A DNA stretch of 63,359 nucleotides from a virus (IMGVR_UViG_3300030372_003104:1-63359), one strand, 5' to 3'. Shown: positions 8,796 to 41,501, counted from the first letter of the stretch. The notes: generated from the sequence alone by a model not told the origin. Made by a program: numbers and translations.

Positions 8796-8796
8796 T

Positions 8797-23400: not shown

Positions 23401-26400
23401 AGAATCAGAAGTCTTAGGACAAGGACTGTCTGCAAAAGAACATTACCAAAGGTTTGAGAAAGCTCGGATAGAAGCTGTTAAAGTAGCTGAGTTCTGGGGC
23501 ATGGAAACACGTATAGATTATAACGAGAACAATAAAGCTAGAGGAGCATTCAGAGCAGAGAGACTACAAGACGGAACTGGAATGCGTTTGGTTATGAATC
23601 CTTGGGGTATGTCACGCCTGACAATGGGGCTTAATGAAGGAAACGCACAGCACGTTAGCCGCTTTGAAGCTGCTCACGAAGTTATACACCATGCTGCTTG
23701 GAGAAGTCTAAGTAAAGCTGAGTTGGATGAAATATTTTCTGTGTTAACTCCAACACAAGTGAATGAAATAATAGACACATACTACGACAATGAAGAGAAG
23801 CGTGTTAATGCACGTAACTTACTAACTCCTGATGCAAGCCCATCAAGAAGGCGTAACATGCAACACATTATAGTCGATGAGTTTCTTCGTATGAAAGCAC
23901 AGAAGCTAACGAAAGGGTATACGTCTGAAGAAGAAATTGAATTCTATAAGAGTAACCCAAACTTTGTCCGTGTTTTCTTACGTTACTTAGGTTCTTACTT
24001 AAATAGATTCAAGGCTATAAGAGAAAGAGACGGAGAAAACCCTGTTGTTGCTGCAGCTACAAATAGATTGACTGGAGAAATGGCAGCTCTCAGAGGAGGT
24101 TACGCCATAACATCTACTGTTAAGTTTGATGTTAATGATCCAGAAGGTACGATAAGAATCCTTGCACAATATTTAGATGATAGACCATTCACTAATGACC
24201 CAAACGAAAGACTTAACTTTGGAGATCGTGAAACACAGGCGGGGGCAGTAAACAATAAAGGTGGACAAAGAGGAGGTCTTGAAAGCGGGGAGTTGGATAC
24301 TGAACTAGGGGGTATTGAATACGGTAGTTACGCCCCACTGTTTCAGATAGCTATGTACGAAGAAGGCCCATACAGAAAGAAGATGGATGGTATGTGGTCT
24401 TGGCTGAATGCTTTCAGAGGTGATGTAGACCCACGAGTTAAGAGAGTGCTACAACAAAGACAGCAGATAAGAGAAGCTGTTGCTAATGATGTGGAAAAGT
24501 TTTCTATTAATCTTAAAAAGATTGTTGAAGAAGACTTTAAAGGCAACCCTCCAGCGGAACTAATCAGAACAATTATTGGAGACAGGAATAATATTTCTCC
24601 TGAGACAGACAATGCTTTTATGAAGTCTATAGAGGGCAACACTCCCGCTCAAATAAAAGCTAAGAGAGAGGCTTATGTTGCAGACAAACAAAAAGAATTC
24701 AATGATAGAAAAGCTGCTGCTGTAAAAGAACTAGCTAAACTACAAAACGTAGACCCTAATCAGGGGAATGATACGAGACTAATGAAACACCTTAATTCTC
24801 TACGAGGATTAACAACGCAGTTATCAAAAGAGATAAGAAGGATTGTAAAAGAAGATAGTGAGATGGGGATAGCTATTGGGGACAACCTTGAAATTTATAT
24901 ACATAGAAAATACAGACTGTTTTCTGAAAAAGAATACAGAGATAATATAAGAAATCACCCTGACTACGAGTCAGTAAGGAATGATGCAGGTGATTATCTG
25001 TTTAAGGAATATGTAAGATTACATAAAGACTGGCAGAACAATGATCGAAATATCTCAGACAAGACGGAGTTTAAAAAACAACTAGTTAATGATTACCTCG
25101 ATGTATTTATTAAAGGGGAAAATAACACTAGTAAAAACAACCTGATTAATAATCTTAAAGGACATAGGAAAAGTATAATTACTTTAGATATAGGAGCTTT
25201 AAAGACGAGGAAGAATCCTCCTCAAGAATTAAGAGAACTATTAGGGGAAATAACTGATAGTGAAAAAGGTTACGGTGATCTTGTAAGAACATTCCAACAC
25301 CTTGGTTTAATCGCTTCACAACTAAACTTTATAAATAATCTAAAAGAGCTTGGTCTTAATAATGGCTTTATTAAAAGTGCGGGTAAGAAAATAGATACGA
25401 CTGCTGAAGGTAAAGATATATACGAGCGTGATGCAGAGTTCGAAGGATCAAAAGAATTTGAAGAACTTGTCATACAAAAAGGGGAAGACATTAACTTAAT
25501 TAACGCTGCTCCTTTTGCCGATGGTAAAAAGTATTACGTCTTGAAGGAGATGCAGTCTGCTTTGAGTGCTATGCTCAACCCACAGACACAGGTAGATCCT
25601 ACCGAAGCACAAAAAGCAAATGAGTTTTTGATTAAGATAGGAGCTAAGTTAACTGGTCTATCTTTAGGAGCGAAGACTCTAGGCTCTATTGGATTCTATG
25701 TGCGTAACGTGTTTTCTAATATGTTATTTTTCGGCCCCGCTCAAGGGTTCTGGAAATTAGGTATGATGTCTAAGTCTTTACAGCAAGAGTTCATACGAAA
25801 GAAATATTTATCTATGTCACCAGAAGAAGTGAGTGCTTTCCACAGGACTGTAGGAGGTATGCTTGGGTTCGGTCAAGATATCAACGCCAGACTCATACAA
25901 GATTTATTAGAGAATCCTCCAAGCGAAGCTCAACTACAGCAAGAACTATTAAATGTTGTAAACGAAATAGAAGAAGCCACTGGTGAAAAGCCTTCTCTTG
26001 ATATCGACGTGCTCTCTAAGAAAGTAGGAGACTCAAGGTTAGGTAAGCTGTATGCAAGACTACGTGATCTATCACAAACAGTTGATACTTTCTTTAGGAT
26101 ATCAGCTTTTATGTTTGAACTTGATTACCTACAGAAAGCTAGAAAGTACGATCAAGATAATCCACCAAGTAAAGACGTTAAATCTAGGAGCTATGCGAAC
26201 TACAGTGATTCGCAACTCATGCAAGAGGCAGCAGATGTAATCAAAAAGACACAACAAAATTATAGTGAAGCACCTCCCTTCGTACAAAAAATGCAAGGCA
26301 ACTGGTTCGGTGTAATGTTCGCCCCATTCATCCGATTCAAAGTAGAAGTCCCAAGGATTATGTTGAATACAATTCCTCAAATCAAAAAGGAAATGCAACA

Positions 26401-27811: not shown

Positions 27812-28117
27812 TTACTCTTTCTGTATGTTCTCTATCTTATCTTTTATTTTATCAATAGCACTGCTCACTTCGTCATGCTTGAGTAAAGATTTAACTTTGC
27901 GTTCCGCAGATGAGACAGTACTAAAATGTCTGCCAAACATCTCACCGATTGTCTTCAGTGGTATACCATACTCTTTGGAAACATACATTCCTAAGTGTCT
28001 CCAATCGGCAACGGTTCCGCCTGATACATCAGAGGATAAGTCCTCTGCTGTAAATCCTGAGATATCTGTTATTGCTTTTAGCACTTGTTGTGGTTCTACT
28101 TTTTTAACTAGTTTCAT
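27812..28117 (-). CDS. Stand-alone DnaA domain IV-like HTH protein
   Basis: RHLGMYVSKE.GIPLKTIGEMFGRHFSTVSSAERKV aligns by eye with the DnaA C-terminal consensus RQIAMYL..E....L..IG..FG.RDHTTV..A.RKI. Confidence 0.75.
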   Translation of the reverse strand: MKLVKKVEPQQVLKAITDISGFTAEDLSSDVSGGTVADWRHLGMYVSKEYGIPLKTIGEMFGRHFSTVSSAERKVKSLLKHDEVSSAIDKIKDKIENIQKE

Positions 28118-29943: not shown

Positions 29944-30459
29944 TTATTTGGTTTTTATATTATTGGTTTTAATTGTTCTTTGTTTAGCCTTACCGAAAGG
30001 TTTATCGGTGACTAGTCTTTCCTTATAACCGAAGTTGAATTTGAAAGACGGATCTCTGACAACCCATATGTGATACTGGTTTGCTGAATCTACTAGCCGA
30101 CTTTCTGCGGGGTACAATTCAACGCCCTCATTCTCTTCCCCGACTAACTGATTCTTAATCTCTTGAAAGTCTCGCCAGTCTTTCATGACTCCACGATCAT
30201 GCCTCTTGATTGAGAGGTGGATGACATCCGATGAGGGATCATCAGTAACAGCGACTTGATACTTATCGTTAGTATATATTTTCTGACTGTCCACTATGTC
30301 CTTAACCCACTCTCTCACTTTGTACTCAACGAGGTGTCTTTCTGAAGCGCAGAATAGTTTAACGTAATACTCGTCACCATTATCATAAGCATCGAGATGT
30401 TGATTAACTAAACTATCAACTTCGCTTTGTTGTATGTATTGTTGTATTAGCTTTTTCAT
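29944..30459 (-). CDS. Conserved phage protein (HLSI.R.D...W...Q.IKN..G.E.EA.E.YP....LVD.AN.YH.W family)
   Basis: Recognisable conserved phage motif in the C-terminal 100 aa. Function unknown. Confidence 0.7.
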   Translation of the reverse strand: MKKLIQQYIQQSEVDSLVNQHLDAYDNGDEYYVKLFCASERHLVEYKVREWVKDIVDSQKIYTNDKYQVAVTDDPSSDVIHLSIKRHDRGVMKDWRDFQEIKNQLVGEENEGVELYPAESRLVDSANQYHIWVVRDPSFKFNFGYKERLVTDKPFGKAKQRTIKTNNIKTK

Positions 30460-30486
30460 ATCTTCTTTATCTAGTTTTTATATTTG

Positions 30487-32034
30487 TTATGCAGCGATAC
30501 CTGCGTTGCTTGGTGGTGCATCGATTGCCTCACCGATTGGGAAGTGCTTGGACTCTAGCCCGTATGACACCCACAACACTGGATAAGGTTGCTCTTGTAA
30601 GTTTCTTACATCATTACTATAACCATCGGTTAAGTACACTAGCCCGTCGCAGAATGGTTCGTTCTCTTTGACCCACTCGAATGCGGGATGGAATCTTGTA
30701 CCACCACCAACGATGATCTTGCTTGGCGCAGTGTCACCTGCATACAACTCATACACGTCTCGCACCTGAGATGATACGGATAGGATGACCATCTTCTCAG
30801 GTCGCATATTATCAAGGAACTCTTGTGCAAGTATCAAGAGATCAGATGTCAGTTGCTCATCCATAGACCAACTACTGTCGATGACGTAGACGATTGTACC
30901 ACAGCCGTCACGACCACGACCCGCAGTGCATAGCCCATTGGTTGCGTTGAAGATCGGTGCATTGAATGGTCGTGTCCATCCGTCTGCAATACGAGCGGTG
31001 TTCCACTCCATCACGTACTTCTTCCAATCCATGTATGATCGTTGTGACTTCTGATCCTTCACACTTCTCAATGTGTTACTCAATCCCATGTCACTTGATG
31101 CTGAGGCTAACTCAGATTGTTTAAGCACTTGGTCTGAGATCTGTTCAATCTCTTCAAGTACCTCCTCAAGTGTCTCGCCCTCCTCAAGATGTGGCTCGTC
31201 AGGTAAATCATCAGCACCCTGCCCGACCCAATCATCACCTAAGATTTCTTTGTCAGTCGGTTTAGGTGTTCCTCCTGTAGCATCACCCTCTTGATCACTG
31301 CCGCCATCACCTTCTTCATCAGTGCTGTCGCCATCACTATCTGATTCACTTGTGTCTTGATTAGTGTCAGCATCCTCATCGCATGGCTCGTCACCTTCAT
31401 CAGATGGTTGTGGATTATCATCACCATCCTGCTCACCCTCCTGTTGATCATCGTCCTCTGCTCCCTGCTCATCGTCCATCTTGGATTGTCCATTGTTCTC
31501 CTCCTTGGCAAGCTCGATGACAATATTCTCCGTACTCATATTGTCGAACCTGATGTCACAGCATGACCCTTCAATCATAGGGAGCAGCTTCGGATTCTGC
31601 TTGAGTATGAGTAGATTATCTGCATGGTCAGCAGCGATGTTCACTCGACGCTTACGCTTCATGAACTCATTTAGAACATGAGCAGCAGCATCATCATCTG
31701 GTATAACACCCATCAGTTTGAAGAGTCTGGATATACCTAACATCACATGACCTCCTTCATGAGCTAGTAGGAATGCAAGGTATCCAACTGGATCACTTGT
31801 CTGTTCTATCTTCTCCATCACACCATGCGGATTGAGACGTAGGTATCTACCATCCGTCTGTCCGTATGGGGTGTTGAATGTCCACCTCCACTTGAGTAGT
31901 GACAGTGCATTGTAGTAAGGGTACAACTCTTCAGTTGTCTCCAGTCTCCTGTACGCTTTCGCTAGTGTGCTGTCTCCGTAGTGATCGAACACAATCGGAT
32001 CGCCTTCTTGTATGTCGTATATATTATGTATCAT
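30487..32034 (-). CDS. VWA-domain protein with an N-terminal HEXXH metallopeptidase-like domain (DUF2201-like)
   Basis: LAHEGGH, acidic linker, MIDAS DSSWS, GGGT.F, LTDG. Confidence 0.85.
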   Translation of the reverse strand: MIHNIYDIQEGDPIVFDHYGDSTLAKAYRRLETTEELYPYYNALSLLKWRWTFNTPYGQTDGRYLRLNPHGVMEKIEQTSDPVGYLAFLLAHEGGHVMLGISRLFKLMGVIPDDDAAAHVLNEFMKRKRRVNIAADHADNLLILKQNPKLLPMIEGSCCDIRFDNMSTENIVIELAKEENNGQSKMDDEQGAEDDDQQEGEQDGDDNPQPSDEGDEPCDEDADTNQDTSESDSDGDSTDEEGDGGSDQEGDATGGTPKPTDKEILGDDWVGQGADDLPDEPHLEEGETLEEVLEEIEQISDQVLKQSELASASSDMGLSNTLRSVKDQKSQRSYMDWKKYVMEWNTARIADGWTRPFNAPIFNATNGLCTAGRGRDGCGTIVYVIDSSWSMDEQLTSDLLILAQEFLDNMRPEKMVILSVSSQVRDVYELYAGDTAPSKIIVGGGTRFHPAFEWVKENEPFCDGLVYLTDGYSNDVRNLQEQPYPVLWVSYGLESKHFPIGEAIDAPPSNAGIAA

Positions 32035-32078
32035 GGTATTCTATTTCTTAGTTAATGGTTTAGTTAACAACTCAGTTG

Positions 32079-32339
32079 TTAAAGTCCTTTCAGCTCGTGG
32101 TTTTTGGGGTGTTCGTTAAGTGGAATGTCCACGTTGATTGCTGCATGGTATCCTGCTCTACCAATCTCTTTGGTAGCGGGGAGTAAAAGATTCTCGACGA
32201 ACCAATCTACATCACCTGCAGCTACAGCCGTTCCTCTGTCCCTGCCTCGTTGTTCAGCCTGAGTTAGTTCAATGTCCATGATCCGTAGTGCAGCATGAAT
32301 CATCTTGAACTGATCAGTAGGTTTATGTGACAACTTCAT
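32079..32339 (-). CDS. Probable detached C-terminal part of the AAA+ ATPase
   Basis: This frame stays open upstream to 32402 (SGLLDDLDAVRKGT-MKL), overlapping the ATPase 3' end. Confidence 0.5.
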   Translation of the reverse strand: MKLSHKPTDQFKMIHAALRIMDIELTQAEQRGRDRGTAVAAGDVDWFVENLLLPATKEIGRAGYHAAINVDIPLNEHPKNHELKGL

Positions 32340-33226
32340 AGTACCCTTACGTACAGCATCAAGGTCATCAAGTAATCCTGATGAGCTGTAGTGTCTCCAA
32401 CCTTAGACTGCAGTGTCAGCTTGAGATGCTTGTTGAACTCAGACTTACTAAGCTCAAGGTTGTTCTCGATGTAGTTGATCTGTCTAGCAGCACTAGCCCA
32501 TGACCTTGGAGTTGGATGCGGTGACCCATCCCAAGGCTGTGGTATTGGTGGAGCGAAGTGATTACCGCTCTCCAACTTAGCGTTGAACTGTAGGTACTCA
32601 ACGACTGGTGAGAACTTACTCCACGCAAACTCAGATGCCCAACTCAACCATGAGTTGATATCTGCTTTTAATATAAACTGATTACCACGATTCACTATCG
32701 GGGCATCTAGTACTGCAGAGCGTGACCCATCCTCACGTCGGTTACCTGTCACGAGTATCTTGACATTCTCGCCAAGCCTATGCGAGCCAATCTTAGACTC
32801 ACCATCTGGATCGACAGTACTACGTACCAACGATCTTGTATCCGCTGCCCACTCTGGCATCTCATCGAAGACGAGCAAGCATGGAGTGTCTTCCATGCCG
32901 AGCCTCTCAAGAAGTGCTGCCGTCGGTATACCCTCTGGCTCTGAGAATGACATGAGATCCTCACCATTCGCACCCTTCTTCAAGACCCCATAACCTGTGA
33001 TCTCAAGTGGTGATGCACCAGTGTAGTTACACTTGTACACCTTTACAGTTTCATCGGTAACTCCGTAGAGTTTAGCGATAGCCTTAGTTACTGAGGCATT
33101 AGCAAGAGCTGTCTTGCCTGTACCTCCCGCCCCCAAGAGAATCATCACTGAATCTCCTGATGAGTATACGATCTCAGCTTGTGTTTGTACGTCGCTGAAT
33201 TTAATTTCTGGTGTTTCGGTATTCAT
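32336..33226 (-). CDS. MoxR/CbbQ-like AAA+ ATPase (apparently frameshifted near its 3' end)
   Basis: Walker A GAGGTGKT, Walker B LVFDE, sensor TGNR, NR arginine finger, PTPRSW. Confidence 0.85.
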   Translation of the reverse strand: MNTETPEIKFSDVQTQAEIVYSSGDSVMILLGAGGTGKTALANASVTKAIAKLYGVTDETVKVYKCNYTGASPLEITGYGVLKKGANGEDLMSFSEPEGIPTAALLERLGMEDTPCLLVFDEMPEWAADTRSLVRSTVDPDGESKIGSHRLGENVKILVTGNRREDGSRSAVLDAPIVNRGNQFILKADINSWLSWASEFAWSKFSPVVEYLQFNAKLESGNHFAPPIPQPWDGSPHPTPRSWASAARQINYIENNLELSKSEFNKHLKLTLQSKVGDTTAHQDYLMTLMLYVRVL

Positions 33227-33282
33227 TGTATTTTATTTGGTTTGTTAGTTTATTGGTTTAGTTAACAACTCAGTTGTTAAGA

Positions 33283-34230
33283 TTAGAGTCCACATACAGC
33301 GAGCCTACTAGCTGTACGTTCTGCTTGGTTGTACACGTCCTCGATTGCAGTAGCAGCGAGCTTTCTTGTCGCTGATCCTGTCTTACCTAAGTGATCACGT
33401 TGGATGCTGCCGACCTCTTGAAGATCCCTGACAATATCATTGATGACATCGAACTCGAACCAGTTCAATTCCTTCAACTCTGCAGAGGCTTCTTTCAATT
33501 CATCGAATGTCTTCTGATGGAGACGCTCGCCCTTAGTCACTTTCTTAATAGCTTCTTTAAGTTTCTTCATAGCAGGTTCCAATACTTTGGAATGGTTCCT
33601 CGCCATGACATCGATGCGTGTCTTCTCAGATTGAGCAATCACTTTGTTGGCTACCTCCTCAGTCATACCATCGAAGATAGTACCCTTCTTAATTGCCATC
33701 GGTGCAGCCGACCACGATACAGCGATCTTGAATTCTGATAAGAACTCCTCACCATTCTGTGGCACGTTGACCTCATGGATGTTATCGCCCAAGCCTTCGA
33801 TTGAATCGGCACGTATGGTATCCCATTCTCTCAAAGCCTCCACTCGTAGGTCATCGAGTTGCTTAGACATCTCATCGACCATTGCTTGTATCTCAGCAAC
33901 CCTATCAGTGGATACGATACGCACTCCACGCACATCACTTGGATGAGTACCCACTTTGTATTTCATCTGAGCCTGTTGCACTACACTGAGCATCTTGCCG
34001 AGAGCATTGTTACGAGTCTCAAGAACTGTAGCTGAAGCTCTCACTCTCCCCTTCTTGGCATTGGTATCCTTAACCACTTCTTTAGTCTTCCCTTTAAGGG
34101 TAGCACTGAAGCCTGTCGGTTTGCTACCTACCCAAGTAACTTGGACAGTGTTGTTTAGTACTGCAAGGATCTCGCTTTCTTCAAGACCTGCTTTGATTTC
34201 TTTGTCATTGTATTGGTTCATTGTATTCAT
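33283..34230 (-). CDS. Helical protein of the type usually found upstream of phage AAA+/VWA pairs (DUF3150-like)
   Basis: THP...GVRIV, coiled-coil, and L..LN...D patterns, plus gene context. Confidence 0.55.
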   Translation of the reverse strand: MNTMNQYNDKEIKAGLEESEILAVLNNTVQVTWVGSKPTGFSATLKGKTKEVVKDTNAKKGRVRASATVLETRNNALGKMLSVVQQAQMKYKVGTHPSDVRGVRIVSTDRVAEIQAMVDEMSKQLDDLRVEALREWDTIRADSIEGLGDNIHEVNVPQNGEEFLSEFKIAVSWSAAPMAIKKGTIFDGMTEEVANKVIAQSEKTRIDVMARNHSKVLEPAMKKLKEAIKKVTKGERLHQKTFDELKEASAELKELNWFEFDVINDIVRDLQEVGSIQRDHLGKTGSATRKLAATAIEDVYNQAERTASRLAVCGL

Positions 34231-34260
34231 TGGTTTAGTTTATTTGGTTTGTTATTGTAC

Positions 34261-34288
34261 ATTATAATCTATTATTATATTAATGCAA
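34261..34288 (-). promoter_or_regulatory. sigma70-like early promoter
   Basis: The minus strand reads TTGCAT-N16-TATAAT, 30 nt upstream of the ATG at 34230. Confidence 0.65.
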
Positions 34289-34340
34289 GTATTATTTTCT
34301 TTTATATGTTTATGGTTTAGTTAACAACTCAGTTGTTAAA

Positions 34341-34490
34341 TTATTTTAGTTTATCTTGTATGTAATCTCTGATCTCAATAAAGAAATCATCAGACAAATC
34401 CATCTGCTCACACAGGTCTTCTGGTATTGAAGCACAAGCTATTCTAGCCATCTCCAATATCTTAATAGCGTATAGTTCTTCTGCACTCAT
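34341..34490 (-). CDS. Small hypothetical protein (49 aa; not in the ORF track)
   Basis: MSAEELYAIKILEMARIAC...QDKLK. ATGA-coupled to the upstream gene, with its stop 1 bp from a palindrome. Confidence 0.6.
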   Translation of the reverse strand: MSAEELYAIKILEMARIACASIPEDLCEQMDLSDDFFIEIRDYIQDKLK

Positions 34491-34732
34491 ACTCTTATCT
34501 TCTTTACTCCTGTTATTTCGTTCTCATGTGATGAGTCTGGATGACTGGCGATCAGACTGTAGAAATATCTCGCTGCTTCTTTGTATGAATCGCAGCTCCA
34601 TCCGTCCACAAAGACAGCTTCAACTGTCTCGCCCTTCTCATCTATAGTATCGAGTCTCCAATCTACATCGAAGACTCCGTATCCATCACCCTCTCGTAGA
34701 GTGATCCAATGGTGTAGTTTATTTTTTGTCAT
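34487..34732 (-). CDS. Hypothetical early protein
   Basis: 81-aa ORF starting 29 nt after a palindrome. Confidence 0.65.
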   Translation of the reverse strand: MTKNKLHHWITLREGDGYGVFDVDWRLDTIDEKGETVEAVFVDGWSCDSYKEAARYFYSLIASHPDSSHENEITGVKKIRV

Positions 34733-34776
34733 AGGTATTATTTAGTTTGTATGTTAATAAGTTAACAACTCAGTTG

Positions 34777-35238
34777 TTAAAGTTTTGTTCTGTATGGTTT
34801 GGTTAATATGTGTAAGGCTGCTAAGTATTTAGGTACAAGCTGCCCCTCTGGAAAGGTTGAGAAGTTATCCATCAGGTCAGCGATCTTCACTTCCCTTGCG
34901 ATGTTACCTGCCTCACCTTCTGCACTGTGAATCCTCATGATGTAGTTGTGATAGAGTTCATCCTCCCCTTGCGTCAGTAGATCGACCGCCTCAATGGTAT
35001 CTTGCCTGATTTCTTTTACATAGGCGAGTTCATGTGATGACATGACTGTGTCCTCCAGAATATCATGCAGTGCTGCAGCAGCTCTGGATCTATAGCTCAC
35101 CGCATTGGTTACTCGTAGAATATGAGTGTCGAAGTACGGCTTACCCATATCTGTGCCGACGGCACGTAGTTGCCCGTCATGGTATTCCTTCGCAAGTTGC
35201 AAAGCTATCTTAGTTTCTTTTATATATGTTGGCTTCAT
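34777..35238 (-). CDS. HD-domain hydrolase, RelA/SpoT small alarmone hydrolase (Mesh1-like) type
   Basis: A..YH.GQ.R...G.PY..H...V, AALHDILEDT, LLT, KIADL.DN. Confidence 0.8.
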   Translation of the reverse strand: MKPTYIKETKIALQLAKEYHDGQLRAVGTDMGKPYFDTHILRVTNAVSYRSRAAAALHDILEDTVMSSHELAYVKEIRQDTIEAVDLLTQGEDELYHNYIMRIHSAEGEAGNIAREVKIADLMDNFSTFPEGQLVPKYLAALHILTKPYRTKL

Positions 35239-35256
35239 TACTTAGTTTGTTTGTAA

Positions 35257-35428
35257 GTTGGATAGGGATGAGTGTGCCATGCACCTCTTAACAACTCAGT
35301 TGTTAACCCTGCTTTCCCCTCTACCGCAGTGATCCACTCCGCATTGCGAAATGACTGCGAGTCTTACAGCAAGGTTAACAACTCAGTTGTTAAGGGTACA
35401 CAGCACACTGCTCACCTAACAATCCAAC
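35257..35428 (-). ncRNA. Candidate structured RNA or ssDNA element built from two palindromes
   Basis: Nested inverted repeats: GTTGGAT/ATCCAAC, GTGTGC/GCACAC, the two palindromes with complementary flanks, CGCAGT/ACTGCG. Two plus-strand C-A mismatches become G-U pairs on the minus strand. Confidence 0.55.
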
Positions 35429-35440
35429 CATTAGTTGAAA

Positions 35441-35641
35441 TTAATTGACCACTCTTATTAGGTCATTGATATCTATCCACGCTCGTGTTCGCTTGCCCTT
35501 GTACAATATGACTAGCTCGACCTCATTGTTTTCGAAACAAGTATCGTAAACTATTCCTTTGTCTTTCTCTCCGTATCCATTCCTCCAATAGACTCGTGAT
35601 CCATTGCCTAGCATATTGTATTCATCTTTTGATATTCTCAT
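35441..35641 (-). CDS. Small SH3-like beta-barrel hypothetical protein
   Basis: G.RVYW...G.V......V.L......W...DL pattern. Confidence 0.6.
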   Translation of the reverse strand: MRISKDEYNMLGNGSRVYWRNGYGEKDKGIVYDTCFENNEVELVILYKGKRTRAWIDINDLIRVVN

Positions 35642-35690
35642 GATGGTATTCCTTTCTTGTTTGTATGTTAATAAGTTAACAACTCAGTTG

Positions 35691-35858
35691 TTAAAACATC
35701 CGATTCCTTGGTAAGAAATTAGTATCGGATACTGCTCGGAGTTTATATGCTAATTCCTTTTCATCCAATTCACATAAGATTTCAATAGCCTGAAATAGTT
35801 TAGCTATCTTTTCAATACGTGCCTTGCGTTCTTCTTTTGTTTCTTTTTTCTTTCTCAT
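35691..35858 (-). CDS. Small hypothetical protein (55 aa; not in the ORF track)
   Basis: MRKKKETKEERKARIEKIAKLF...RNRMF. The stop TAA lies inside a palindrome and the start is 18 nt after another. Confidence 0.6.
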   Translation of the reverse strand: MRKKKETKEERKARIEKIAKLFQAIEILCELDEKELAYKLRAVSDTNFLPRNRMF

Positions 35859-35891
35859 GATTTGTATATTAATAAGTTAACAACTCAGTTG

Positions 35892-36185
35892 TTATTCTGC
35901 TCCGTTCTCATTCTTAATTGAGTAGATAGCCCTCAACTCTCCGCTCGATATCAGTAACCAGTTGACCTGATACCCGATATCACAGCCCGAAAACTCTACG
36001 TGTATGTGGTTAGCACGTCGGAGGACAGTGCCATCTTTAAAGTTTATTTCTCGGAGCATACCTTTTTTATCGGTATAGATCTCTTCGATGTCATCGACGT
36101 TTTCTTTTCTGGAATCTAAGCAGAGTCCATTTGAGTTGAGATCTACGAATAGATCTAATGCTTGTTGCAATGTATTTCTTTTCAT
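35892..36185 (-). CDS. Hypothetical early protein
   Basis: 97-aa ORF bounded by palindromes. Confidence 0.65.
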   Translation of the reverse strand: MKRNTLQQALDLFVDLNSNGLCLDSRKENVDDIEEIYTDKKGMLREINFKDGTVLRRANHIHVEFSGCDIGYQVNWLLISSGELRAIYSIKNENGAE

Positions 36186-36264
36186 TTAATTACTTGGTTT
36201 ATTTGTTATTAATTTAACAACTCAGTTGTTAACAACTCAGTTGTTAAGGATTGAAATTTTAAAT

Positions 36265-36444
36265 CTATGCCTTTACCCCCGTCCATCGGATTACCTGATC
36301 AAAGGATTCATATCCTAAAGCTGCATATAGAATGCTTTCCAATGTCTCAAAAGTATATCCGTTTATACTCGTAACAATTTGTAAGGTCTCCTCACTTATC
36401 CCTAATTCTCTTAGAGTATCCCATGCTTTTTTCTTATCTCTCAT
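36265..36444 (-). CDS. Small hypothetical protein (59 aa; not in the ORF track)
   Basis: MRDKKKAWDTLRELGISEETLQIVTSINGYTFETLESILYAALGYESFDQ..., bounded by palindromes. Confidence 0.65.
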   Translation of the reverse strand: MRDKKKAWDTLRELGISEETLQIVTSINGYTFETLESILYAALGYESFDQVIRWTGVKA

Positions 36445-36606
36445 ATTACTATTTTATGTTTATTATTTTTATATGTTATTAGTTTAACAACTCAGTTGTT
36501 AAGTCGATCAATTAAGGATCGAACTATGCACCACTGGCAAGGGTTATTTGTCAGTGGTGCAATGTTCAATGCTCACTTGTTAAGTGGTAGGTTAACAACT
36601 CAGTTG

Positions 36607-37146
36607 TTAACTTTGCTCAGTCTCTTTGTTGATCTCATTGATCAACTGTACCGCTTTGGCTTGTTCCTCAAGTGATGCCGCTTTGTAGAGCTTGGCAATT
36701 TGTTCTGCAGTTATCGCCTTCTTTTCGTTGTCACTATCCTTCTTATTTACTAGGACTTTCTTAACTGTGGACTCAGCTATTTTGATATAGCCGACAGATA
36801 CCTTGTTAAGAGTCTTCGTAATACCCGCATCTTTTCTAGTATTTCTCTGCTTGTGACCTCTAGAGTTTAGAATTTTAGCAATATTTTGCTGAGTAGTTTT
36901 ACCATTCTTAACCAATGGAGCAGTTACGTTCTTGATAGTCTTATAGATTACAGGACTAGGAATATTTGCCTTTTCCATTATCTCAATCTTTTCGACTAGT
37001 ACTTCTTTAAGTGTGAGAGTCGCTTTATAAACTGCCTCAATAAATTCGTCTCTTGCTGTTAACAACTCAGTTGTTACATTTTCAAGAACTGTTTTCTGAT
37101 CTGCAGTTAATACGATTTCATTTTTCTTATTTGCTTTTTTAGTCAT
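36607..37146 (-). CDS. First early gene, a Lys-rich helical protein (possible DNA-binding protein)
   Basis: 179 aa and basic. The stop lies in a palindrome and another palindrome lies inside the CDS. Confidence 0.7.
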   Translation of the reverse strand: MTKKANKKNEIVLTADQKTVLENVTTELLTARDEFIEAVYKATLTLKEVLVEKIEIMEKANIPSPVIYKTIKNVTAPLVKNGKTTQQNIAKILNSRGHKQRNTRKDAGITKTLNKVSVGYIKIAESTVKKVLVNKKDSDNEKKAITAEQIAKLYKAASLEEQAKAVQLINEINKETEQS

Positions 37147-37186
37147 TTTCTTTTTTCTAATTTAGTTGTTTATATTGTTAGATTTA

Positions 37187-37391
37187 ATCCATTGTTTTCA
37201 ATGGTCAGAATCTTAACAACTGAATTGTTAAGACTCAGACCATTGCACTATTGGCGGTATTCTTGCCAATAGTGCAATGGATAAATGCCAAGCTAATAAC
37301 CTCATAAATTATTAACTGTGATACCACAGTATAGTTCAATCCGTTGCAGTTAATTGAAGCTGTAAATTGCTTTTAAGCCATAATTTACAGC
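37187..37391 (-). promoter_or_regulatory. Structured leader of the early operon (overlapping hairpins)
   Basis: Hairpins at 37199-37245, 37240-37280 (16-bp perfect stem) and 37359-37391. Confidence 0.55.
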
Positions 37392-37689
37392 CAATATAAA
37401 ATGATCATATGAGCTAAATAACTTTGAACTGTGATCAAGGTATATCCGAAAAATCGGTTTAACTGGCGTGAATACTTAGGGACGAAAAGATTTGCTAAAT
37501 CATATCCGCTTTTTTTGCACCCTCCAAAATGTTCAATCTCTACTTTAGGCATTCAACAGGTGCTGGAATTTTCAACTCTGGTTATGGCGTTGTCGCTCGC
37601 AAAATCTAGTTGGATTGGTCACCTACCAACAGGCTATAATGTCAAAAATCAAACTCTCTACTGTCACTAGAGCTGAGGTAATTTTTCCC

Positions 37690-38320
37690 TCACTTTCTTA
37701 ACCAATAAATTAAAAAAAGATATAGTGCAAGCTAATATTTCATTATTTCTCATAATTAATCATAACAATTTAGTTGTTAGTTGTAAGTTGTTAATGGTTA
37801 ATGAGTTATGAGAACATTAAAAATAATGATGATCTATTATAAATCATCATAATGATCTAAAAATTAGACTAGCAGAACAACAAAATATCCTAACAACTTT
37901 CCAAGATATTTTTGAAAAGTGTTATATCGTCGTAATGCATCAAGGCTATAATAGTGCCATATCAACCTCAAACGCCATATGAGCCATTTATGAAGCATTA
38001 TGAGGATATTGTAGTGAGTATATATATTTATGGTAATTGTATAACTGACAATGGATAGTTTATAATTACCATAGAGCAATGGTAACAACTCAGTTGTTAA
38101 TTGTCCACTGTACATGATCATCATCACCGCTTGATTATTAACAGAGGTTAACCATCCATAACCGATCATTGTTAACAGATCTGAATAGTTAACAGGGGTT
38201 AATTATCAACTGTTCATGATCAACCACGCCACCCCCTACCCCCCGATTTTTTGTGTGCCGCCCCCCTATGTATATGTGTGTACAAGAAAAAATTTGACTA
38301 TATATCAACCACCCATATAG
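37690..38320. other. AT-rich non-coding divergence region with C-tracts; candidate genome end/packaging site or origin
   Basis: Separates leftward early genes from rightward structural genes. Contains CCACGCCACCCCCTACCCCCCG...CCGCCCCCC at 38224-38266. Confidence 0.45.
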
Positions 38321-38326
38321 GTACCC

Positions 38327-38599
38327 ATGCCCAACATAAAAAAACAAGAATACTATAGGAAAAACAAGGAGAAACGTCTAGAATACCAACGAGAATACTA
38401 TGAGCAAAATAAAGAGCGTATAAGAAAAAATCGCACAACTAGAATGGCTAAAGAACCAGAGCGCATCGAAAAAGAAAAGCGGTATAACAAAGAATACTAC
38501 GAGAAACACAAACACGATATTTTGGAGCGTCGTAAGCGGAAAAGAGCGAAAGGAAAGCCGCCCACTAAACACCGCCCATTATACAAAGATGAGCGGTAG
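38327..38599 (+). CDS. Basic protein with YY.KNKE-type repeats
   Basis: EYYRKNKE, EYYEQNKE and EYYEKHKH repeats. TTGACT-N16-TATAGG lies just upstream (38294-38321). Confidence 0.6.
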   Translation: MPNIKKQEYYRKNKEKRLEYQREYYEQNKERIRKNRTTRMAKEPERIEKEKRYNKEYYEKHKHDILERRKRKRAKGKPPTKHRPLYKDER

Positions 38600-38786
38600 A
38601 ATGAGCGATATCGGAGTCTTCAAAAGAAACCAAAAGAGTTAATAAATATACAGTTACATTCAAGTTGAAAACTATTTTTAAAAGGTGTATACAGTTTCAT
38701 GCAAATGCAGGAAACTGAGAACAATATATAGAAAAGTATTTATATATATATATGTATAGTCAATTTTTTTCTAACTAAGTAAAACT

Positions 38787-39242
38787 ATGATAAAAGAAAC
38801 ATTAAAAAGACCTGTCCCTAAAGCATCTAACTATGAAGTAGACGAGCATGGGTTCATCTACAGAGGTAGACAAAGGATATCCCAACGCTATCGAAGTGGT
38901 CGGTGGTATTCCCAAATTAGAGGTGATGACGGACGTAATTATACAATCGAAGGCATTAAACTCGCTGAACATGTATTTGGAGAAGACCTCCAACTTAGTC
39001 GGAACGATATACTCAATTCGCTAAAGGCTAAGATTATCGAAGAGTTCCCTCGATACGCTATCACGAGTTATGGAGCTGTTTACTGTATCCAACCTCCCCG
39101 AAGAGGCCCGAAAGCAGGGCAGCGATTCTTAGTAAGTGAAAAAGAGCAGCATGGAAAGAAGTACGTGACACTCTATCACATCGACGGGAGACGGAGGACG
39201 GTACAAGTTAATAAGCTAGTCCAAGCTTCGTGGGGATATTAA
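38787..39242 (+). CDS. Tandem NUMOD4-like domain protein without a recognisable HNH core
   Basis: PVPKASNYEVDEHGFIY and IIEEFPRYAITSYGAVY...YVTL...G.RRT..V.KLV. Confidence 0.55.
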   Translation: MIKETLKRPVPKASNYEVDEHGFIYRGRQRISQRYRSGRWYSQIRGDDGRNYTIEGIKLAEHVFGEDLQLSRNDILNSLKAKIIEEFPRYAITSYGAVYCIQPPRRGPKAGQRFLVSEKEQHGKKYVTLYHIDGRRRTVQVNKLVQASWGY

Positions 39243-39281
39243 GAGGTTGTTTTTCAAGTAAAAAGATTTAATTTATTAAGG

Positions 39282-41501
39282 ATGTACGAAGCTACTGCAA
39301 GTTTAAACGCCTTGGAAGAACTAGGCAGCCTTGATGAAAAAGGTAACCCTGTTGAATCACGACTAAAAGATGTCAAAAGTGCTCTTAGCATTTTCGAGAA
39401 CTTACGTCGTGCAGATGAACAGTCCTCGATCAATCGGGCAAGAGTCGATGCTATGTTTGACGGAGCCAATCCGTATAATCAAAGTGCTCTTGCTTCTAGT
39501 GGTCAGGGTCTTAAAACAAATTTAAATTTTGGGGAGGCTCAACGTCTACTGGATATTTCTTTATCTGCTTACGTTGACTTATACTCTTCACTTGAAAAAC
39601 TAGTAGAGGTAAAATCTACTCAAGGTAACGCAACTGAAGTTGGGCGGTTCGAAGATATCGTATCTGAAGAGATCACTCAGTTACTTCGATGCTGGCCTGA
39701 GTTCCACTCGTTATACTTACGGCTTTGTACTACTTTCATAAAACACGGTGTCGCTGTTACATACTTCGATACTCCAGATGATTGGAAGTTTAGAGTAGGC
39801 GGTTTTGCAGATATGCTTATACCACGCCAGACTCCAGCTTCTGAAGCTATGATCGATATTGCTATCGGTCGTAGAGAGTATCACCTACATGAGTTGTTCG
39901 CTTTTATCAAAAACGAAAAAGCCGCTGCCAGAGTAGGTTGGAATGTTGACGAAGTAAAACGAGTCATAATGAAATGTGCATCGACTAATGGACGCAAGCG
40001 CAATGTGAATTATGAGAGTTGGGAAACCTTACAACAAGAATTCAAGAACAACGATATACACGAAGGGCATAACAACCCTACGGTATCTGTGTTACATCAT
40101 TGGGTTCGTGAAATGGATGGCTCTATCTCTCATTACATCTGTAGTGAAAAAGACGCTAAAGACTTTTTATACAAAAAGATTTCTCGTTATGATAAGCCAG
40201 AACATGCATATGTTATGTTTACTTATGGTGTCGGTTCGAATGGGACGTACCACTCCATTCGGGGTTTGGGCCATCGGATCTTCAACCATATTCAAACGAG
40301 CAATCGCTTGAGGTGTCAGATGATCGATGGTGCAATGTTAGGGTCAGCAGTGATGATCCAACCAGAGAACCAGAGGGCGTTAGATGAATTAGGGTTCACT
40401 TACTACGGAGCTTACGCTGTACTCTCCCCGAATGTGAATATAATAGAAAAAGCAGTACCGAATCTAAGTACTGCAGTTAAACCAGCTCTTGAAGATATAT
40501 CCAATCAGTTAGCACTAAACACTGATACGGTGAGCACTTACGGCCCTCAACAGAGTTCACCGTACAAAAATCAGATGCAGGTCGTAGCTGACATGGATGT
40601 ACAAACTAGATTGTCAGGTGCATCATTGAATCTGTTCTACGCATCATGGAATCGTTTACTACGAGAAGTTGTCAGACGAATTGTAACAACGAAGAAGTCT
40701 GATCCGATGTTAAAAGATTTCTATGAGCGATGTGCAATGAGAGGTGTACCAGAGAACTTTATCCGTTCACTCGATACGATGAGAACTAAAGCAGTTCGTT
40801 CTATTGGTAATGGTTCATATGCAAATAGATTAGTAGCACTGAAAGAGTTGCAAGCGATCAGTGGTTCATTTGATGAGACAGGTCGTAGGAACTTAACTCG
40901 TGACATTGTATCAACTAGAGTTGGTCATGATTTAGCTGACAGGTATACACCGCAACAGTCAGAGCCTAGACCGACTATTGATTCTAAGATTGCGTATCTT
41001 GAGAACCAAGAGTTGATGGCTGGTGAGGCAGTGCCAGTTGTTGATGCAGAGATGCACGGTGCTCATTTGAATGTGCATCTACCTGAGTTAAACCAACTTA
41101 TTGAAGAATTGAATCAGGGAGCTGCAGATCCTGTCCAGTCATTACCTGCACTACAAGCTTTCTACCAACACATATCTGAGACTGTTCAGTTTATTGCGTC
41201 AGACCCAACTCAACAGGGAATGGTAGGAGCAGCTAAACAAGTCTTGAATTTTGCTGAAGAGATGATTAATAATACATCTAAGCAAGTTCAGAAGATGCAA
41301 CGTGATCAGATGGAACAACAAGGAGGATCACCTGAAGGTGCTGAACAGAATGCTTTATCAATGAAGATGCAAGAGCATCAAATGAAATTAGATATGGCGA
41401 GACAGAAAGCAGAACTGGACATGGAGTTAAAACAAGCTAAGTTCAGACAAGAGCAAGCTATAGAAGATGCAAAGACAGTAGCGAAGCTCCGTGAAAACTA
41501 A
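39282..41501 (+). CDS. Portal protein
   Basis: 739-aa helical protein with a Q/M-rich C-terminal coiled-coil barrel typical of podophage portals. Upstream of the scaffold and capsid genes. Confidence 0.75.
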   Translation: MYEATASLNALEELGSLDEKGNPVESRLKDVKSALSIFENLRRADEQSSINRARVDAMFDGANPYNQSALASSGQGLKTNLNFGEAQRLLDISLSAYVDLYSSLEKLVEVKSTQGNATEVGRFEDIVSEEITQLLRCWPEFHSLYLRLCTTFIKHGVAVTYFDTPDDWKFRVGGFADMLIPRQTPASEAMIDIAIGRREYHLHELFAFIKNEKAAARVGWNVDEVKRVIMKCASTNGRKRNVNYESWETLQQEFKNNDIHEGHNNPTVSVLHHWVREMDGSISHYICSEKDAKDFLYKKISRYDKPEHAYVMFTYGVGSNGTYHSIRGLGHRIFNHIQTSNRLRCQMIDGAMLGSAVMIQPENQRALDELGFTYYGAYAVLSPNVNIIEKAVPNLSTAVKPALEDISNQLALNTDTVSTYGPQQSSPYKNQMQVVADMDVQTRLSGASLNLFYASWNRLLREVVRRIVTTKKSDPMLKDFYERCAMRGVPENFIRSLDTMRTKAVRSIGNGSYANRLVALKELQAISGSFDETGRRNLTRDIVSTRVGHDLADRYTPQQSEPRPTIDSKIAYLENQELMAGEAVPVVDAEMHGAHLNVHLPELNQLIEELNQGAADPVQSLPALQAFYQHISETVQFIASDPTQQGMVGAAKQVLNFAEEMINNTSKQVQKMQRDQMEQQGGSPEGAEQNALSMKMQEHQMKLDMARQKAELDMELKQAKFRQEQAIEDAKTVAKLREN

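Follow-up and report, generated by a model that had tools for sequence, protein, structure and literature searches.

A 19-bp palindrome, TTAACAACT-N-AGTTGTTAA, is repeated along the early operon of an uncultured marine phage; in the window (the whole stretch of DNA analysed, 63,359 nt), which is an entire 63-kb phage contig, 15 sites with ≤2 mismatches were located, all within 32064–38100. The same array was found in eight related IMG/VR contigs, and a second allele of the motif occupies the same junctions in contig 3300032087_004010 (L020). With slightly less than even confidence, the array is read as a set of double-stranded DNA sites for a dimeric 179-aa early protein, serving as operator plus roadblocks; the protein binding, the recognition as DNA rather than RNA and the repressive effect are what we infer.

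Motif copies and their positions

Motif search: The query TTAACAACTCAGTTGTTAA was scanned over both strands of the window with ≤3 mismatches allowed, and 100 shuffles served as control. The 31 matches obtained comprise the 15 sites, each counted on + and − because the motif is palindromic, and one 3-mismatch site at 24809; the chance expectation was 0.05 matches (mean of 100 shuffles), and 31 was reached in 0 shuffles. Exact copies with C as centre on the + strand: n = 11; one-mismatch copies with an outer base changed: 35877, 37059 and 38082 (n = 3); the copy at 37213 has a flipped centre (G on +) and one arm mismatch, and a degenerate 16th copy (4 mismatches) lies at 37762–37780. For this window, the earlier note was correct both in counting about 16 copies within 6 kb and none elsewhere and in giving 14 near-exact copies the same + strand centre base.

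Operon positions: The genes of the motif region are encoded on the minus strand, which is the coding strand of the leftward early operon. In the stretch from the 179-aa gene to the 515-aa gene, the motif was found at 9/10 boundaries, the sole motif-free one being the overlapping junction 34487–34490, and at none of the boundaries farther downstream in the operon (30459 to 27595). As had been claimed, it supplies the TAA stop of five genes (ORFs ending at 32079, 34777, 35691, 35892 and 36607) and lies 1–2 bp past two other stops (ORF end 33283, 2 bp before the motif; 34341, 1 bp before). The two leader sub-families described previously, CTAAACCA.. and CTTATTAA[C/T]ATACAAA, were recovered together with a third, A[C/T]TAATAACA... 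The features, from upstream to downstream, are as follows.

38082..38100, minus strand: motif copy farthest upstream (1 mismatch); it lies in the divergent control region and overlaps a promoter-like match
37755..37800, minus strand: clustered direct repeats of the type-1 half-site (TTAACAACT, TACAACT, AACAACT), together with the degenerate copy
37199..37245, minus strand: 5' leader hairpin of the 179-aa gene, with the motif copy 37213–37231 (centre flipped, C8>T) at its apex
36607..37146, minus strand: first early gene, encoding the 179-aa basic protein, candidate motif binder
37059–37077, minus strand: motif copy inside the 179-aa coding sequence
36592..36610, minus strand: motif copy forming the stop codon of the 179-aa gene
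36503..36591, minus strand: element C, 89 nt of conserved non-coding sequence with a motif copy on either side
36484..36502, minus strand: motif copy followed after 39 nt by the 59-aa gene
36214..36247, minus strand: motif doublet, overlapping by TTAA, upstream of the 97-aa gene; also a doublet in relatives
35877..35895, minus strand: motif copy with the 97-aa gene's stop; the 55-aa gene follows after 18 nt
35676..35694, minus strand: motif copy with the 55-aa gene's stop; the 66-aa gene follows after 34 nt
35288..35393, minus strand: two motif copies (35375–35393 and 35288–35306) around the 68-nt structured element K
34762..34780, minus strand: motif copy forming the stop of the 153-aa HD-phosphohydrolase gene
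34321..34339, minus strand: motif copy 1 nt past the 49-aa gene; the 315-aa gene follows after a 90-nt leader
33262..33280, minus strand: motif copy 2 nt past the 315-aa gene, 35 nt upstream of the ATPase gene
32064..32082, minus strand: last motif copy, forming the stop of an 86-aa ORF, 29 nt upstream of the 515-aa VWA-like gene
27812..28117, minus strand: helix-turn-helix protein of 101 aa, DnaA domain IV-like, encoded distally in the operon; second candidate binder

Symmetry, motif alleles and the first early protein

Type-2 motif: L020 carries a symmetric variant, TTTAACAAG-CT-CTTGTTAAA (type 2), in at least 15 copies at the same junctions; the copies in its cassette region (6482–9617) and at the 315-aa/ATPase junction are all type 2, and the exceptions in this contig are two perfect type-1 copies (9906 and 12185). 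L019 carries one type-2 copy (12163), its counterpart of the site 32064..32082 being type 2; type 2 is known from one contig and a single copy in another. The core TTAACAA is common to both types, the core-to-core spacing differing by 1 bp.

Centre base and half-sites: The arms are invariant in all exact copies, up to a free centre. In the relatives the coding-strand centre was G in 68, C in 14, A in 2 and T in 0 of 84 exact-arm copies (the total leaves out the rows for L017 and L021), and it is G or C between genomes at orthologous sites, e.g., the site 33262..33280; the idea that a constant centre base makes the sites oriented fails because of these flips. A weak strand preference may exist, the centre still being 81% G on the coding strand. 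The symmetry includes positions at which hairpin pairing is impossible (type 1, T9/A11; type 2, G8/C11). Judged by its arrangement, the half-site behaves as the recognition unit: direct repeats of the own-type half-site are present in the control region of both the window and L020; the cluster 37755..37800 is conserved in L016, L018 and L019, and the equivalent place in L020 has type-2 half-sites in direct repeat. Within the 179-aa gene, the window, L007 and L015 have a full palindrome as internal site, and in L018 and L019 this site consists of two direct TAACAACTG half-sites from which no hairpin is possible; the L020 counterpart gene contains 3 type-2 half-sites, and tandem arrays of 4 and 3 copies were found in L020 non-coding DNA.

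179-aa protein: The protein is basic (pI 9.6); its tblastn homologues (76–95% identity) were found in 5/5 type-1 relatives covering the region and none in L020. The first early protein of L020, encoded at the same place, has 130 aa and 26% identity to the 179-aa protein (hhalign probability 94%, E 1.2e-7), and the genes neighbouring it are 85–97% identical. Sequence comparison shows the motif allele changing together with the allele of the first early protein. The co-variation is based on one switch only. A symmetric homodimer was predicted for the 179-aa protein (score 0.59 versus 0.00 for the best of 3 controls; the 0.59 mark was reached by 20/30 proteins solved as pairs and 1/23 solved as single chains; at least 81% of contacts in common between runs, partner pLDDT at least 69); the predicted dimer supports binding and is no demonstration of it. 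Pfam gave no match above threshold, Foldseek nothing at E ≤ 0.001, and the best VIA Z-score (5.9) was within noise for helical proteins; a DNA-binding fold was assigned by none of the three.

Proposed mechanism: The palindrome would be a double-stranded DNA recognition site for a two-fold symmetric phage protein, most likely the 179-aa product of the first early gene, which would be produced first. On accumulation, the dimer would bind the arm pairs in the control region, in its own leader and coding sequence and at every cistron boundary, and would shut down or gate the early operon by means of a promoter operator and stoperator-like roadblocks. Operators for a dimeric phage protein, one of three options offered previously, are the best supported by the invariant arms, the free centre, the half-site repeats, the co-variation and the predicted homodimer, binding being the step that we infer. 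Further points in favour are the basic pI, the promoter-like match overlapped by the upstream-most copy in the window and in L016, and the negative result for a phage RNA polymerase. Counting against this mechanism are the unassigned fold, the single switch behind the co-variation, the mixed motif types in L020 and L019, the 1-bp difference in core spacing, the covarying hairpin at 37213–37231, the distance of most copies from a recognisable promoter and the bias of the centre towards G.

It is unlikely, in our estimate, that the binder is instead the 101-aa DnaA domain IV-like protein, with one monomer per 9-bp arm and a late shut-off of early genes. This protein has a genuine sequence-specific DNA-binding domain (Bac_DnaA_C 8.8e-11; PDB 2z4r, DnaA, 4.2e-5), is kept in all relatives, and could read the TTAACAA core of both types, which would account for genomes with mixed types; its base-contacting signature is changed (GRDHTTV → GRHFSTV), and therefore a non-canonical box is expected. 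Each 9-mer arm matches the canonical DnaA box at 6/9 positions and misses the conserved T4 position, a partial resemblance. However, variation in the protein does not follow the motif type, since L020 and a type-1 genome have identical copies of it, and the shared operon is its sole link to the early region.

Comparison with repressor sites: Stoperators are oriented sites of 13 bp. They are asymmetric, monomer-bound, orientation-dependent and serve lysogenic immunity, whereas the phage described here has a perfect palindrome and a candidate binder predicted to be a dimer, and neither a lysogeny module nor an integrase was seen in it. According to the excerpted sources, the stoperators of Cluster A mycobacteriophages (L5/Bxb1-type repressor sites) are many copies of a short protein-binding site at intergenic operon positions, act as promoter operators and elongation blocks, and co-evolve with the repressor allele (PMC9283540, PMC6550527).

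The closest published analogue is found in Cluster O mycobacteriophages, whose 17-bp palindrome, 5'-TGTTCGGNNNCCGAACA, in the excerpted text, is present in >30 copies per genome, is missing from host genomes and is ascribed by its authors to a proposed dimeric regulatory protein (PMC4351075). Common to both systems, as far as that text describes them, are invariant inverted arms with a variable centre lacking a clear orientation, enrichment of copies in the short intergenic regions of one long operon with some copies within genes, and indels between relatives explained by recombination between copies (PMC4351075). The sequences are unrelated, as are host and phage lineage, and the arms are 7+3+7 there versus 9+1+9 here; the >30 copies there are spread genome-wide, 11/34 clearly in genes, whereas the about 15 copies here lie within ~6 kb, at 9/10 cistron boundaries, and often form the stop codon; an allelic motif/protein pair, found here, is not reported in the excerpted text (PMC4351075). 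The description of the array as an undescribed system was too strong, because the Cluster O literature already documents palindromic repeats whose arms are invariant and whose centre is free; in function, stoperators and PeSLs come close.

Possible structure at the RNA level

Hairpins: A lone motif copy folds with −5.3 kcal/mol (z −1.4; 20/200 shuffles fold equally well), and its hairpin is far too short for RNase III. The hairpin 37199..37245 has 21 pairs (−29.8 kcal/mol, z −6.8); across 6 genomes 99.2% of cells are paired and 3 pairs have compensatory changes, the covariation score being reached by 0/500 shuffles; G.U pairs occur on the coding strand only, one of them invariant, and the C8>T change of the copy 37213–37231 preserves a U.G pair. 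RNA-level structure at 37213–37231 is indicated because of the compensatory changes and the coding-strand-only G.U pairs. Element C folds into a 26-pair imperfect hairpin in which 3 pairs are compensatory and the coding strand has G.U pairs (with the flanking motif copies: −50.9 kcal/mol, z about −9.5) and is present in 6/6 type-1 genomes with the region covered. Element K, with its two motif copies paired to each other, gives −61.7 kcal/mol (z −9.8) and is limited to the window, L004/L015 and L009/L019.

A hairpin in the early transcript (8-bp stem and 3-nt loop at cistron 3' ends) is a serious rival, given that a covarying hairpin with G.U pairs is capped by one copy, although we consider this reading doubtful. 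Its role might be stabilisation, insulation or processing, or it might be the RNA site of the 179-aa protein, cf. lambda N/boxB; neighbouring copies could also pair into a 19-bp duplex around small structured RNAs, giving an RNase III-like processing stalk. All copies lie in or just upstream of the leftward transcription unit, adjoining the upstream stop codon; elements C and K are conserved structured RNAs between two copies; the preponderance of G at the coding-strand centre is in line with a transcript-level role, and co-varying protein and hairpin alleles would also suit an N/boxB-type pair. The weak fold of the lone copy argues against it, as do the conserved symmetry of positions unable to pair, the loop base that is not conserved, and the half-sites in direct repeat, including the internal site of L018 and L019, that form no hairpin. 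No compensatory stem variants were found among ~100 copies of one type, and an extended stem (coding-strand run of at least 5 pairs) was found at one site only, in the 6 orthologous copies of the 37213 site, and additionally in the L020 copy 8012, among 108 copies examined. An RNA-library contig of a relative runs uncut across the site 32064–32082, DNA carry-over being possible. The processing or stabilising hairpin put forward earlier stays in contention on account of the copy that caps the covarying hairpin and is weakened by the −5.3 kcal/mol of the lone copy.

In lambda-type N/boxB (nut) systems the first early gene encodes a small basic protein and is preceded by a leader hairpin, with different alleles of both protein and hairpin among otherwise mosaic relatives; the basic first early protein, the leader hairpin and the differing alleles among mosaic relatives are alike here. 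Lambda has two nut sites per genome, and the boxB loop is the recognised part, whereas here there are ~15 sites with a variable loop base and an invariant stem, and no boxA-like element was identified.

Promoters, cassettes and recombination

Promoter-like elements: TGGACA-17-TACCAT with TG (38107..38079) overlaps the upstream-most motif copy; the L016 homologue of this copy overlaps TTATCA-17-TATAAT, and no promoter-like match was found there in L019. The 90-nt leader of the 315-aa gene has a promoter-like TTGCAT-16-TATAAT, kept in relatives, which was read by eye and is under the −35 threshold of the sigma-70 scan. Most motif copies are far from a recognisable promoter. The sigma-70 scan of the motif region was at chance level (39 matches versus 34.5 ± 5.8 expected) and included TTAACA-18-TAACAT at three motif copies; the putative "−10" varies across leader families (TAACAT, AAACAT, AAACAA), with a spacer of 18 nt.

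N4 promoters, located upstream of early genes, are stems closed by a 3-nt loop. Promoters of this type, read as DNA hairpins by an injected virion RNA polymerase, are barely credible here: the geometry is similar and a 2335-aa virion-module protein of unknown function is present, but a phage RNA polymerase was looked for without success, neither the 2335-aa nor the 739-aa protein gave an RNA polymerase signal, and the former resembles polyvalent-protein clusters (LPD38/LPD39/MuF_C, 0.97); the loop base is variable, one gene has a copy in its interior, and the motif also takes the form of direct half-sites.

A PeSL-like composite cassette, i.e., a host sigma-70 early promoter with an overlapping stem-loop attenuator for each early gene, is quite unlikely. 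The layout fits (stop codon, stem-loop, A/T-rich leader, SD-like AAGAAAGGA in one leader family, start codon), as far as the excerpted source describes PeSLs (PMC2839356), three copies give the promoter-like match, and cassettes are shuffled between motif copies; on the other hand, such matches are at chance, the "−10" is not conserved and follows an 18-nt spacer, the real-looking promoters differ in sequence (TATAAT upstream of the 315-aa gene), and the motif hairpin is A/T-rich, weak and without a U-tract. T4-type PeSLs are likewise, in the excerpted text, short regulatory repeats from the stop of a small early gene to the next start, with a stem-loop and with recombination between copies that shuffles ORFan cassettes; they consist of a consensus sigma-70 promoter and a G/C-rich terminator stem-loop (PMC2839356, PMC4122927), whereas here there is no consistent promoter, the A/T-rich stem is weak, and what is conserved is strictly a palindrome of sequence.

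Cassettes: In relatives, cassette content and order differ at motifs (e.g., I-Y versus Y-I), 25/34 homology-block starts in the motif-bearing part lying within 11 nt of a motif; the motif-free distal operon is equally mosaic at gene boundaries. The same mosaicism speaks against a crossover site of dedicated site-specific or hairpin-dependent cassette recombination, like integron attC, a very unlikely explanation that would be favoured by the varying cassettes and block starts, by the TTAA common to the overlapping doublets and by the G/C centre flips, which resemble palindrome inversion. The proteins scanned (a subset of ORFs) included no integrase, transposase or HUH enzyme, and the Logan contigs had no motif-to-motif joints; the phage encodes a PD-(D/E)XK nuclease, which is consistent with general short-homology recombination. 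Recombination joints, the third option proposed before, are not supported as a dedicated system (no recombinase found, motif-free part mosaic) and are supported as an evolutionary consequence: comparison of the related genomes supports early-gene shuffling between phages by way of the repeats, the 19 bp and similar leader, repeated ~15 times, would double as short homology, and the early genes would therefore be swappable cassettes.

Motif array in the window and in related contigs

Search of the window with the 19-bp palindrome (up to 3 mismatches) gave 15 sites, every one in 32064-38100, in or just upstream of the leftward early operon; an additional 3-mismatch site was found outside the array, at 24809; the chance expectation from shuffled sequence was 0.05 matches. 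Eleven copies were exact, 3 had a difference in an outer base, and the copy at 37213 carried a flipped centre and one arm change; a degenerate 16th copy was located at 37762. The genes lie on the minus strand, so that the coding-strand motif reads TTAACAACTGAGTTGTTAA, with C usually next. As the earlier note had claimed, five genes take their TAA stop from the motif, and two stop 1-2 bp before it. The motif was present at 9 of the 10 boundaries from the gene of the 179-aa protein through the 515-aa gene; the tightly packed distal genes (30459 to 27595) had 0 copies. The following features are referred to in this section.

36607-37146, minus strand: gene of the 179-aa protein, first of the early operon
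32336-33226, minus strand: 296-aa ORF, one piece of the split ATPase gene
32079-32339, minus strand: 86-aa ORF, the other piece of the ATPase gene
60087-63359 and 3-3470, plus strand: tail-fibre-like ORF, open at both contig ends

The overlap at 32336-32339 looks like a motif-free boundary and was rejected as one: in relatives and in two metagenome runs the sequence is longer by 28 bases at 32387 and encodes one 391-aa ORF. The extra bases were present in contigs of runs X3 and X4; the split of the ATPase gene in the window reflects a genuine frameshifting deletion or else a fault of assembly.

The window is a single 63,359-bp contig, on record as a whole genome, and is probably circularly permuted, since the tail-fibre-like ORF runs off both ends; its two end pieces suggest one giant protein of roughly 2,250 aa in the complete genome. 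Encoded are a family A DNA polymerase, a helicase, a PD-(D/E)XK nuclease, the large terminase and giant tail-fibre proteins; tRNAs were not found. No close relative was present among 50,697 phage-database records; megablast of 30000-38400 and tblastn of the 2335-aa and 739-aa proteins against that database gave no match. Sequencing runs that contain it are labelled marine metagenome, and the lineage, which is uncultured, was seen in runs of 7 named studies. Rfam scan of 31000-39500 (E <= 1) returned a chance miRNA match only; no prior description of the motif or of the phage group was found in the literature searched. A host REP-like element was rejected: 596 Gb of bacterial genomes held 3 single matches to the motif form of the window (type 1), about the chance level (estimate roughly 4).

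The exact motif was found in 14 stretches of 8 IMG/VR contigs, with many copies in most; whole early regions of 7 of the 8 contigs were obtained by fetching around the conserved 315-aa gene, and loci of the relatives are designated by L numbers. In the relatives the motif occupies the same kinds of junction, and G-poor leaders drawn from a small set come after it. No phage group other than this one turned up in searches with the ATPase, the 315-aa protein or the DnaA-like protein. The centre base on the coding strand, in 84 copies with exact arms (L017 and L021 omitted; some loci share one contig), was G in 68, C in 14, A in 2 and T in 0. At the orthologous site after the 315-aa gene it was G in the window, L005 and L011, and C in L004 and L008. 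The proposal that the sites are oriented, made from the constant centre in the window, was thus not borne out. Changes to the complement were far commoner than transitions, and the pattern of flips resembles palindrome inversion more than point mutation. Two loci of one IMG/VR contig (L007, 99-117; L002, 14880-14898) have the end of the 81-aa gene and the motif in common and diverge on the other side; a duplication, a recombinant junction or a chimeric assembly at the repeat could each account for it.

Second motif form and the first early protein

In one relative (contig 3300032087_004010; loci L020 and L014) the HD hydrolase, 81-aa, 315-aa, ATPase and 515-aa genes are 85-97% identical to those of the window, and the motif at the same junctions, ahead of the same leaders, is TTTAACAAG-CT-CTTGTTAAA (type 2). 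At least 15 type-2 copies were counted in L020, some of them in non-coding DNA as tandem arrays, one of four and one of three. The outer TTAACAA/TTGTTAA is common to both types, the inner part is altered symmetrically, and the spacing between cores is 5 in type 1 and 4 in type 2. The 179-aa protein (tblastn) was found with 76-95% identity in all five type-1 relatives covering the region; tblastn gave no match to it in L020, where the same position is held by a 130-aa homologue of 26% identity (profile comparison: probability 94%, E 1.2e-7). By sequence comparison, the two motif alleles accompany two alleles of the first early protein, in a single switch. This co-variation is not replicated, because the type-2 motif in IMG/VR consists of that contig plus one single copy, the latter in a type-1 genome. 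Within the conserved distal block, two junctions show a mixture of the types. Genomes of the distant 179-aa family members P0003, P0004 and P0006 were not found in viral contigs, nor those of P0003 and P0004 in metagenome contigs.

With a pI of 9.6, the 179-aa protein is basic. A symmetric homodimer through long N-terminal helices was predicted with a score of 0.59 vs 0.00 for the best of 3 controls; 20 of 30 known homodimers score this high, as does 1 of 23 monomers, and the runs had at least 81% of contacts in common, with pLDDT of at least 69. The dimer model fits, and in that degree supports, motif binding. A fold model built on 6 close sequences could not be used (pLDDT 48); that built on 12 had pLDDT 73. 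Foldseek with the model gave no match at E <= 0.001; VIA gave a best Z-score of 5.9, to a designed protein; the atlas returned unnamed viral clusters only; Pfam gave weak HTH_Tnp_Tc3_2 (7e-4) and HTH_33 matches, each in 1 of 12 family members; the PDB profile search returned designed repeat proteins only, plus RpoN-C at E 0.55. No weight was given to any of these fold results.

DNA site or RNA signal

The motif is quite possibly, if still tentatively, an array of DNA sites bound by the 179-aa family. Within a type the arms are invariant and the centre is free, and the symmetry reaches bases that are unable to pair in a hairpin (T9/A11 in type 1, G8/C11 in type 2); these properties favour a two-fold symmetric protein that recognises duplex DNA. 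The same reading is favoured by half-sites of the own type that recur as direct repeats: in the control region of the window (37755-37800, kept in three relatives) and of L020 (about six CCTAACAAG-type repeats at 6520-6660), and inside the first early gene, where three genomes have the palindrome within the 179-aa gene, L018 and L019 have two direct TAACAACTG half-sites, and L020 has three type-2 half-sites. The basic character and the predicted symmetric homodimer of the 179-aa protein point the same way.

The features that bear on the other readings are as follows.

37213-37231: motif copy in the leader of the 179-aa gene
36503-36591, minus strand: element C, 89 nt, non-coding, after the 179-aa gene
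35307-35374, minus strand: element K, 68 nt
27812-28117, minus strand: gene of the DnaA domain IV-like 101-aa protein

A signal acting at the RNA level is unlikely, though three observations favour it. The copy at 37213 forms the apex of a 21-pair hairpin, in which 99.2% of cells are paired across six genomes, with three compensatory pairs and G.U pairs on the coding strand only; element C is a covarying 26-pair hairpin between two motif copies, and the two copies that flank element K are able to pair with each other. Against this, a lone copy is weak (-5.3 kcal/mol, z -1.4), and an extended coding-strand stem (run of at least 5 pairs) was seen beyond the six orthologous 37213 copies only at L020 8012; in two copies a run of this length was confined to the opposite strand. 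RNase III processing sites of the T7 early type span about two turns of double-stranded RNA. A lone copy, with 8 pairs, falls short of this length, which is reached only by the 37213 copy and by the copy-to-copy pairing around C and K.

Element C was kept in all six type-1 genomes whose DNA covers the region; its imperfect fold shows compensatory changes at 3 pairs as well as coding-strand G.U pairs, and a role as processing site, attenuator or small RNA is possible. Element K, by its look a non-coding cassette, was present in the window and two relatives and missing from that junction in others.

That the same DNA array is bound by the 101-aa protein instead is very improbable. This protein has a true DNA-binding fold, with the contact signature GRDHTTV changed to GRHFSTV, and occurs in all relatives, but it shows no co-variation with motif type. 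The DnaA box is a 9-mer with a TTATCCACA-like consensus; the arm TTAACAACT has 6 of 9 positions in common with it (by eye) and is not itself such a box, though a derived one is possible in view of the altered signature of the homologue.

Quite improbable as well is an address system in which palindrome and first early protein would be a matched, allelic pair: the protein would read its own motif type, on DNA or on the nascent transcript, at every cassette boundary, and so control and physically delimit single-gene units by processing or gated read-through. If true, any gene placed between two motifs would gain correct early expression automatically, and the operon would be a phage-borne plug-and-play cassette platform with switchable specificity (type 1 vs type 2), like an immunity type.

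Cassettes, transcription and published repeats

Six genomes were split at the motifs and the pieces were clustered. Both array ends were conserved, and the middle was variable and re-ordered; the cassette strings (capitals denote pieces between motifs) were H N I J K L in the window, X N I Y J Z in one relative and Y I S K Z in another. The expectation that gene content varies between motif copies held in the relatives, content and order both differing among the six genomes. In the motif-bearing part 25 of 34 homology-block starts were <=11 nt from a motif (such windows make up ~10% of that DNA); the blocks mostly end at the next start codon, past the common leader. The motif-free distal genes equally show mosaicism at gene boundaries, and motifs and gene boundaries coincide, inseparable as block borders. 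Motif-to-motif joints were not seen in Logan contigs; these contigs break at motif-plus-leader repeats (e.g., X3 pieces ending at 34774 and 35688), which is read as an assembly effect. In integron attC and other site-specific cassette systems a cognate integrase or recombinase is encoded close by; none was found among the 49 window proteins scanned (Pfam or PHROGs; smaller ORFs and the structural module in part only). Shuffling is treated as a consequence of the repeats and not their purpose, because the distal genes are mosaic too, no recombinase was found and the contigs hold no joints.

Sigma-70 scan of the region gave 39 matches vs 34.5 +/- 5.8 in shuffles, i.e., the chance level; the best recurrent match, TTAACA-18-TAACAT, occurred in 3 copies only, and the putative -10 was not conserved across leader families. 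In the window and L016, but not in L019, a promoter-like match was seen to overlap the upstream-most motif copy, and the remaining copies do not sit at promoters; a conserved TATAAT element lies upstream of the 315-aa gene (by eye). None of 10 terminator-like matches in the region was at a motif, and the lone motif hairpin has no U-tract. N4-type hairpin promoters are served by a phage-encoded (virion) RNA polymerase. No family or solved relative that would indicate a phage RNA polymerase was found for the 2335-aa or the 739-aa protein; for this reason the host polymerase is presumably used, with most early genes co-transcribed. RNA-library contigs of run X20 cover few parts of the region: one spans the 32064-32082 site, and a second stops at 34249, close to the promoter-like TATAAT; DNA carry-over is possible, and such contigs are unable to show RNA ends.

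On the DNA-site reading, the protein of the first cistron would bind the promoter, its own leader and gene, and each boundary, and this binding would lead to autoregulated shut-off through occlusion and roadblock; the same logic is given for stoperators in the available part of PMC9283540. Stoperators are asymmetric sites oriented with transcription, unlike the perfect palindrome with flipping centre found here; binding by a repressor that also halts elongation, as at stoperators, would have indirect backing from the co-variation with the first early protein and from the predicted dimer.

The closest published case, going by the accessible portion of its description (PMC4351075), is the repeat of Cluster O mycobacteriophages: a 17-bp palindrome with invariant arms, a free centre and an intergenic bias in one operon, for which that portion reports indels between copies, suggests a dimeric regulator and leaves the function unknown. 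The present array likewise has many copies, invariant inverted arms and a variable centre without consistent orientation; it differs from the Cluster O sequence 5'-TGTTCGGNNNCCGAACA, as printed in the same portion (PMC4351075), in sequence and arm length, so that the two are alike in kind and not by homology. Unlike the Cluster O repeat, it punctuates the cistron boundaries of the window phage almost completely, is restricted to the early operon, where it overlaps stop codons, and, most important, has a second allele that changes together with the candidate binder. PeSL (promoter-early stem-loop) cassettes carry a stable stem-loop for termination or attenuation, and each repeat has a sigma-70 consensus -35/-10 promoter, which the copies of the motif array do not have; shuffling of ORFan cassettes by recombination between copies, as the consulted part of PMC2839356 has it for PeSLs, applies here too, and the cassette pattern matches what the available parts describe for PeSLs (PMC2839356) and Cluster O repeats (PMC4351075).

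No part of a phage genome varies more, or is less well understood, than the early 'host-takeover' region. The allele pair provides a concrete protein-site candidate for a class of repeats whose function, as far as the available text of PMC4351075 goes, has been unknown since the Cluster O description. If true, the pair would explain both how shut-off of a long early operon can be achieved in a lytic phage with few promoters and why early genes move as cassettes, and it would constitute a compact orthogonal operator/repressor pair.

Three further features were recorded in and around the region.

20426-27433, plus strand: 2335-aa ORF, adjoining the packaging genes
37385-37700, minus strand: non-coding stretch upstream of the first early gene
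38327-38599, plus strand: divergent gene of a 90-aa repeat-like protein

The 2335-aa protein had no Pfam, PHROG, PDB or phage-database match; its language-model look-alikes were clusters with LPD38/LPD39/MuF_C, polyvalent-protein domains, and it looks like a polyvalent protein. The equivalent of the non-coding stretch in L020 (7620-7760) sits after the first early gene (by eye), and the 55-aa ORF called at 37385-37700 may not be a real gene. The 90-aa protein belongs to no Pfam family, is very basic (pI 10.2) and is kept in L020; its gene is preceded by promoter-like TTGACT-16-TATAGG (by eye).
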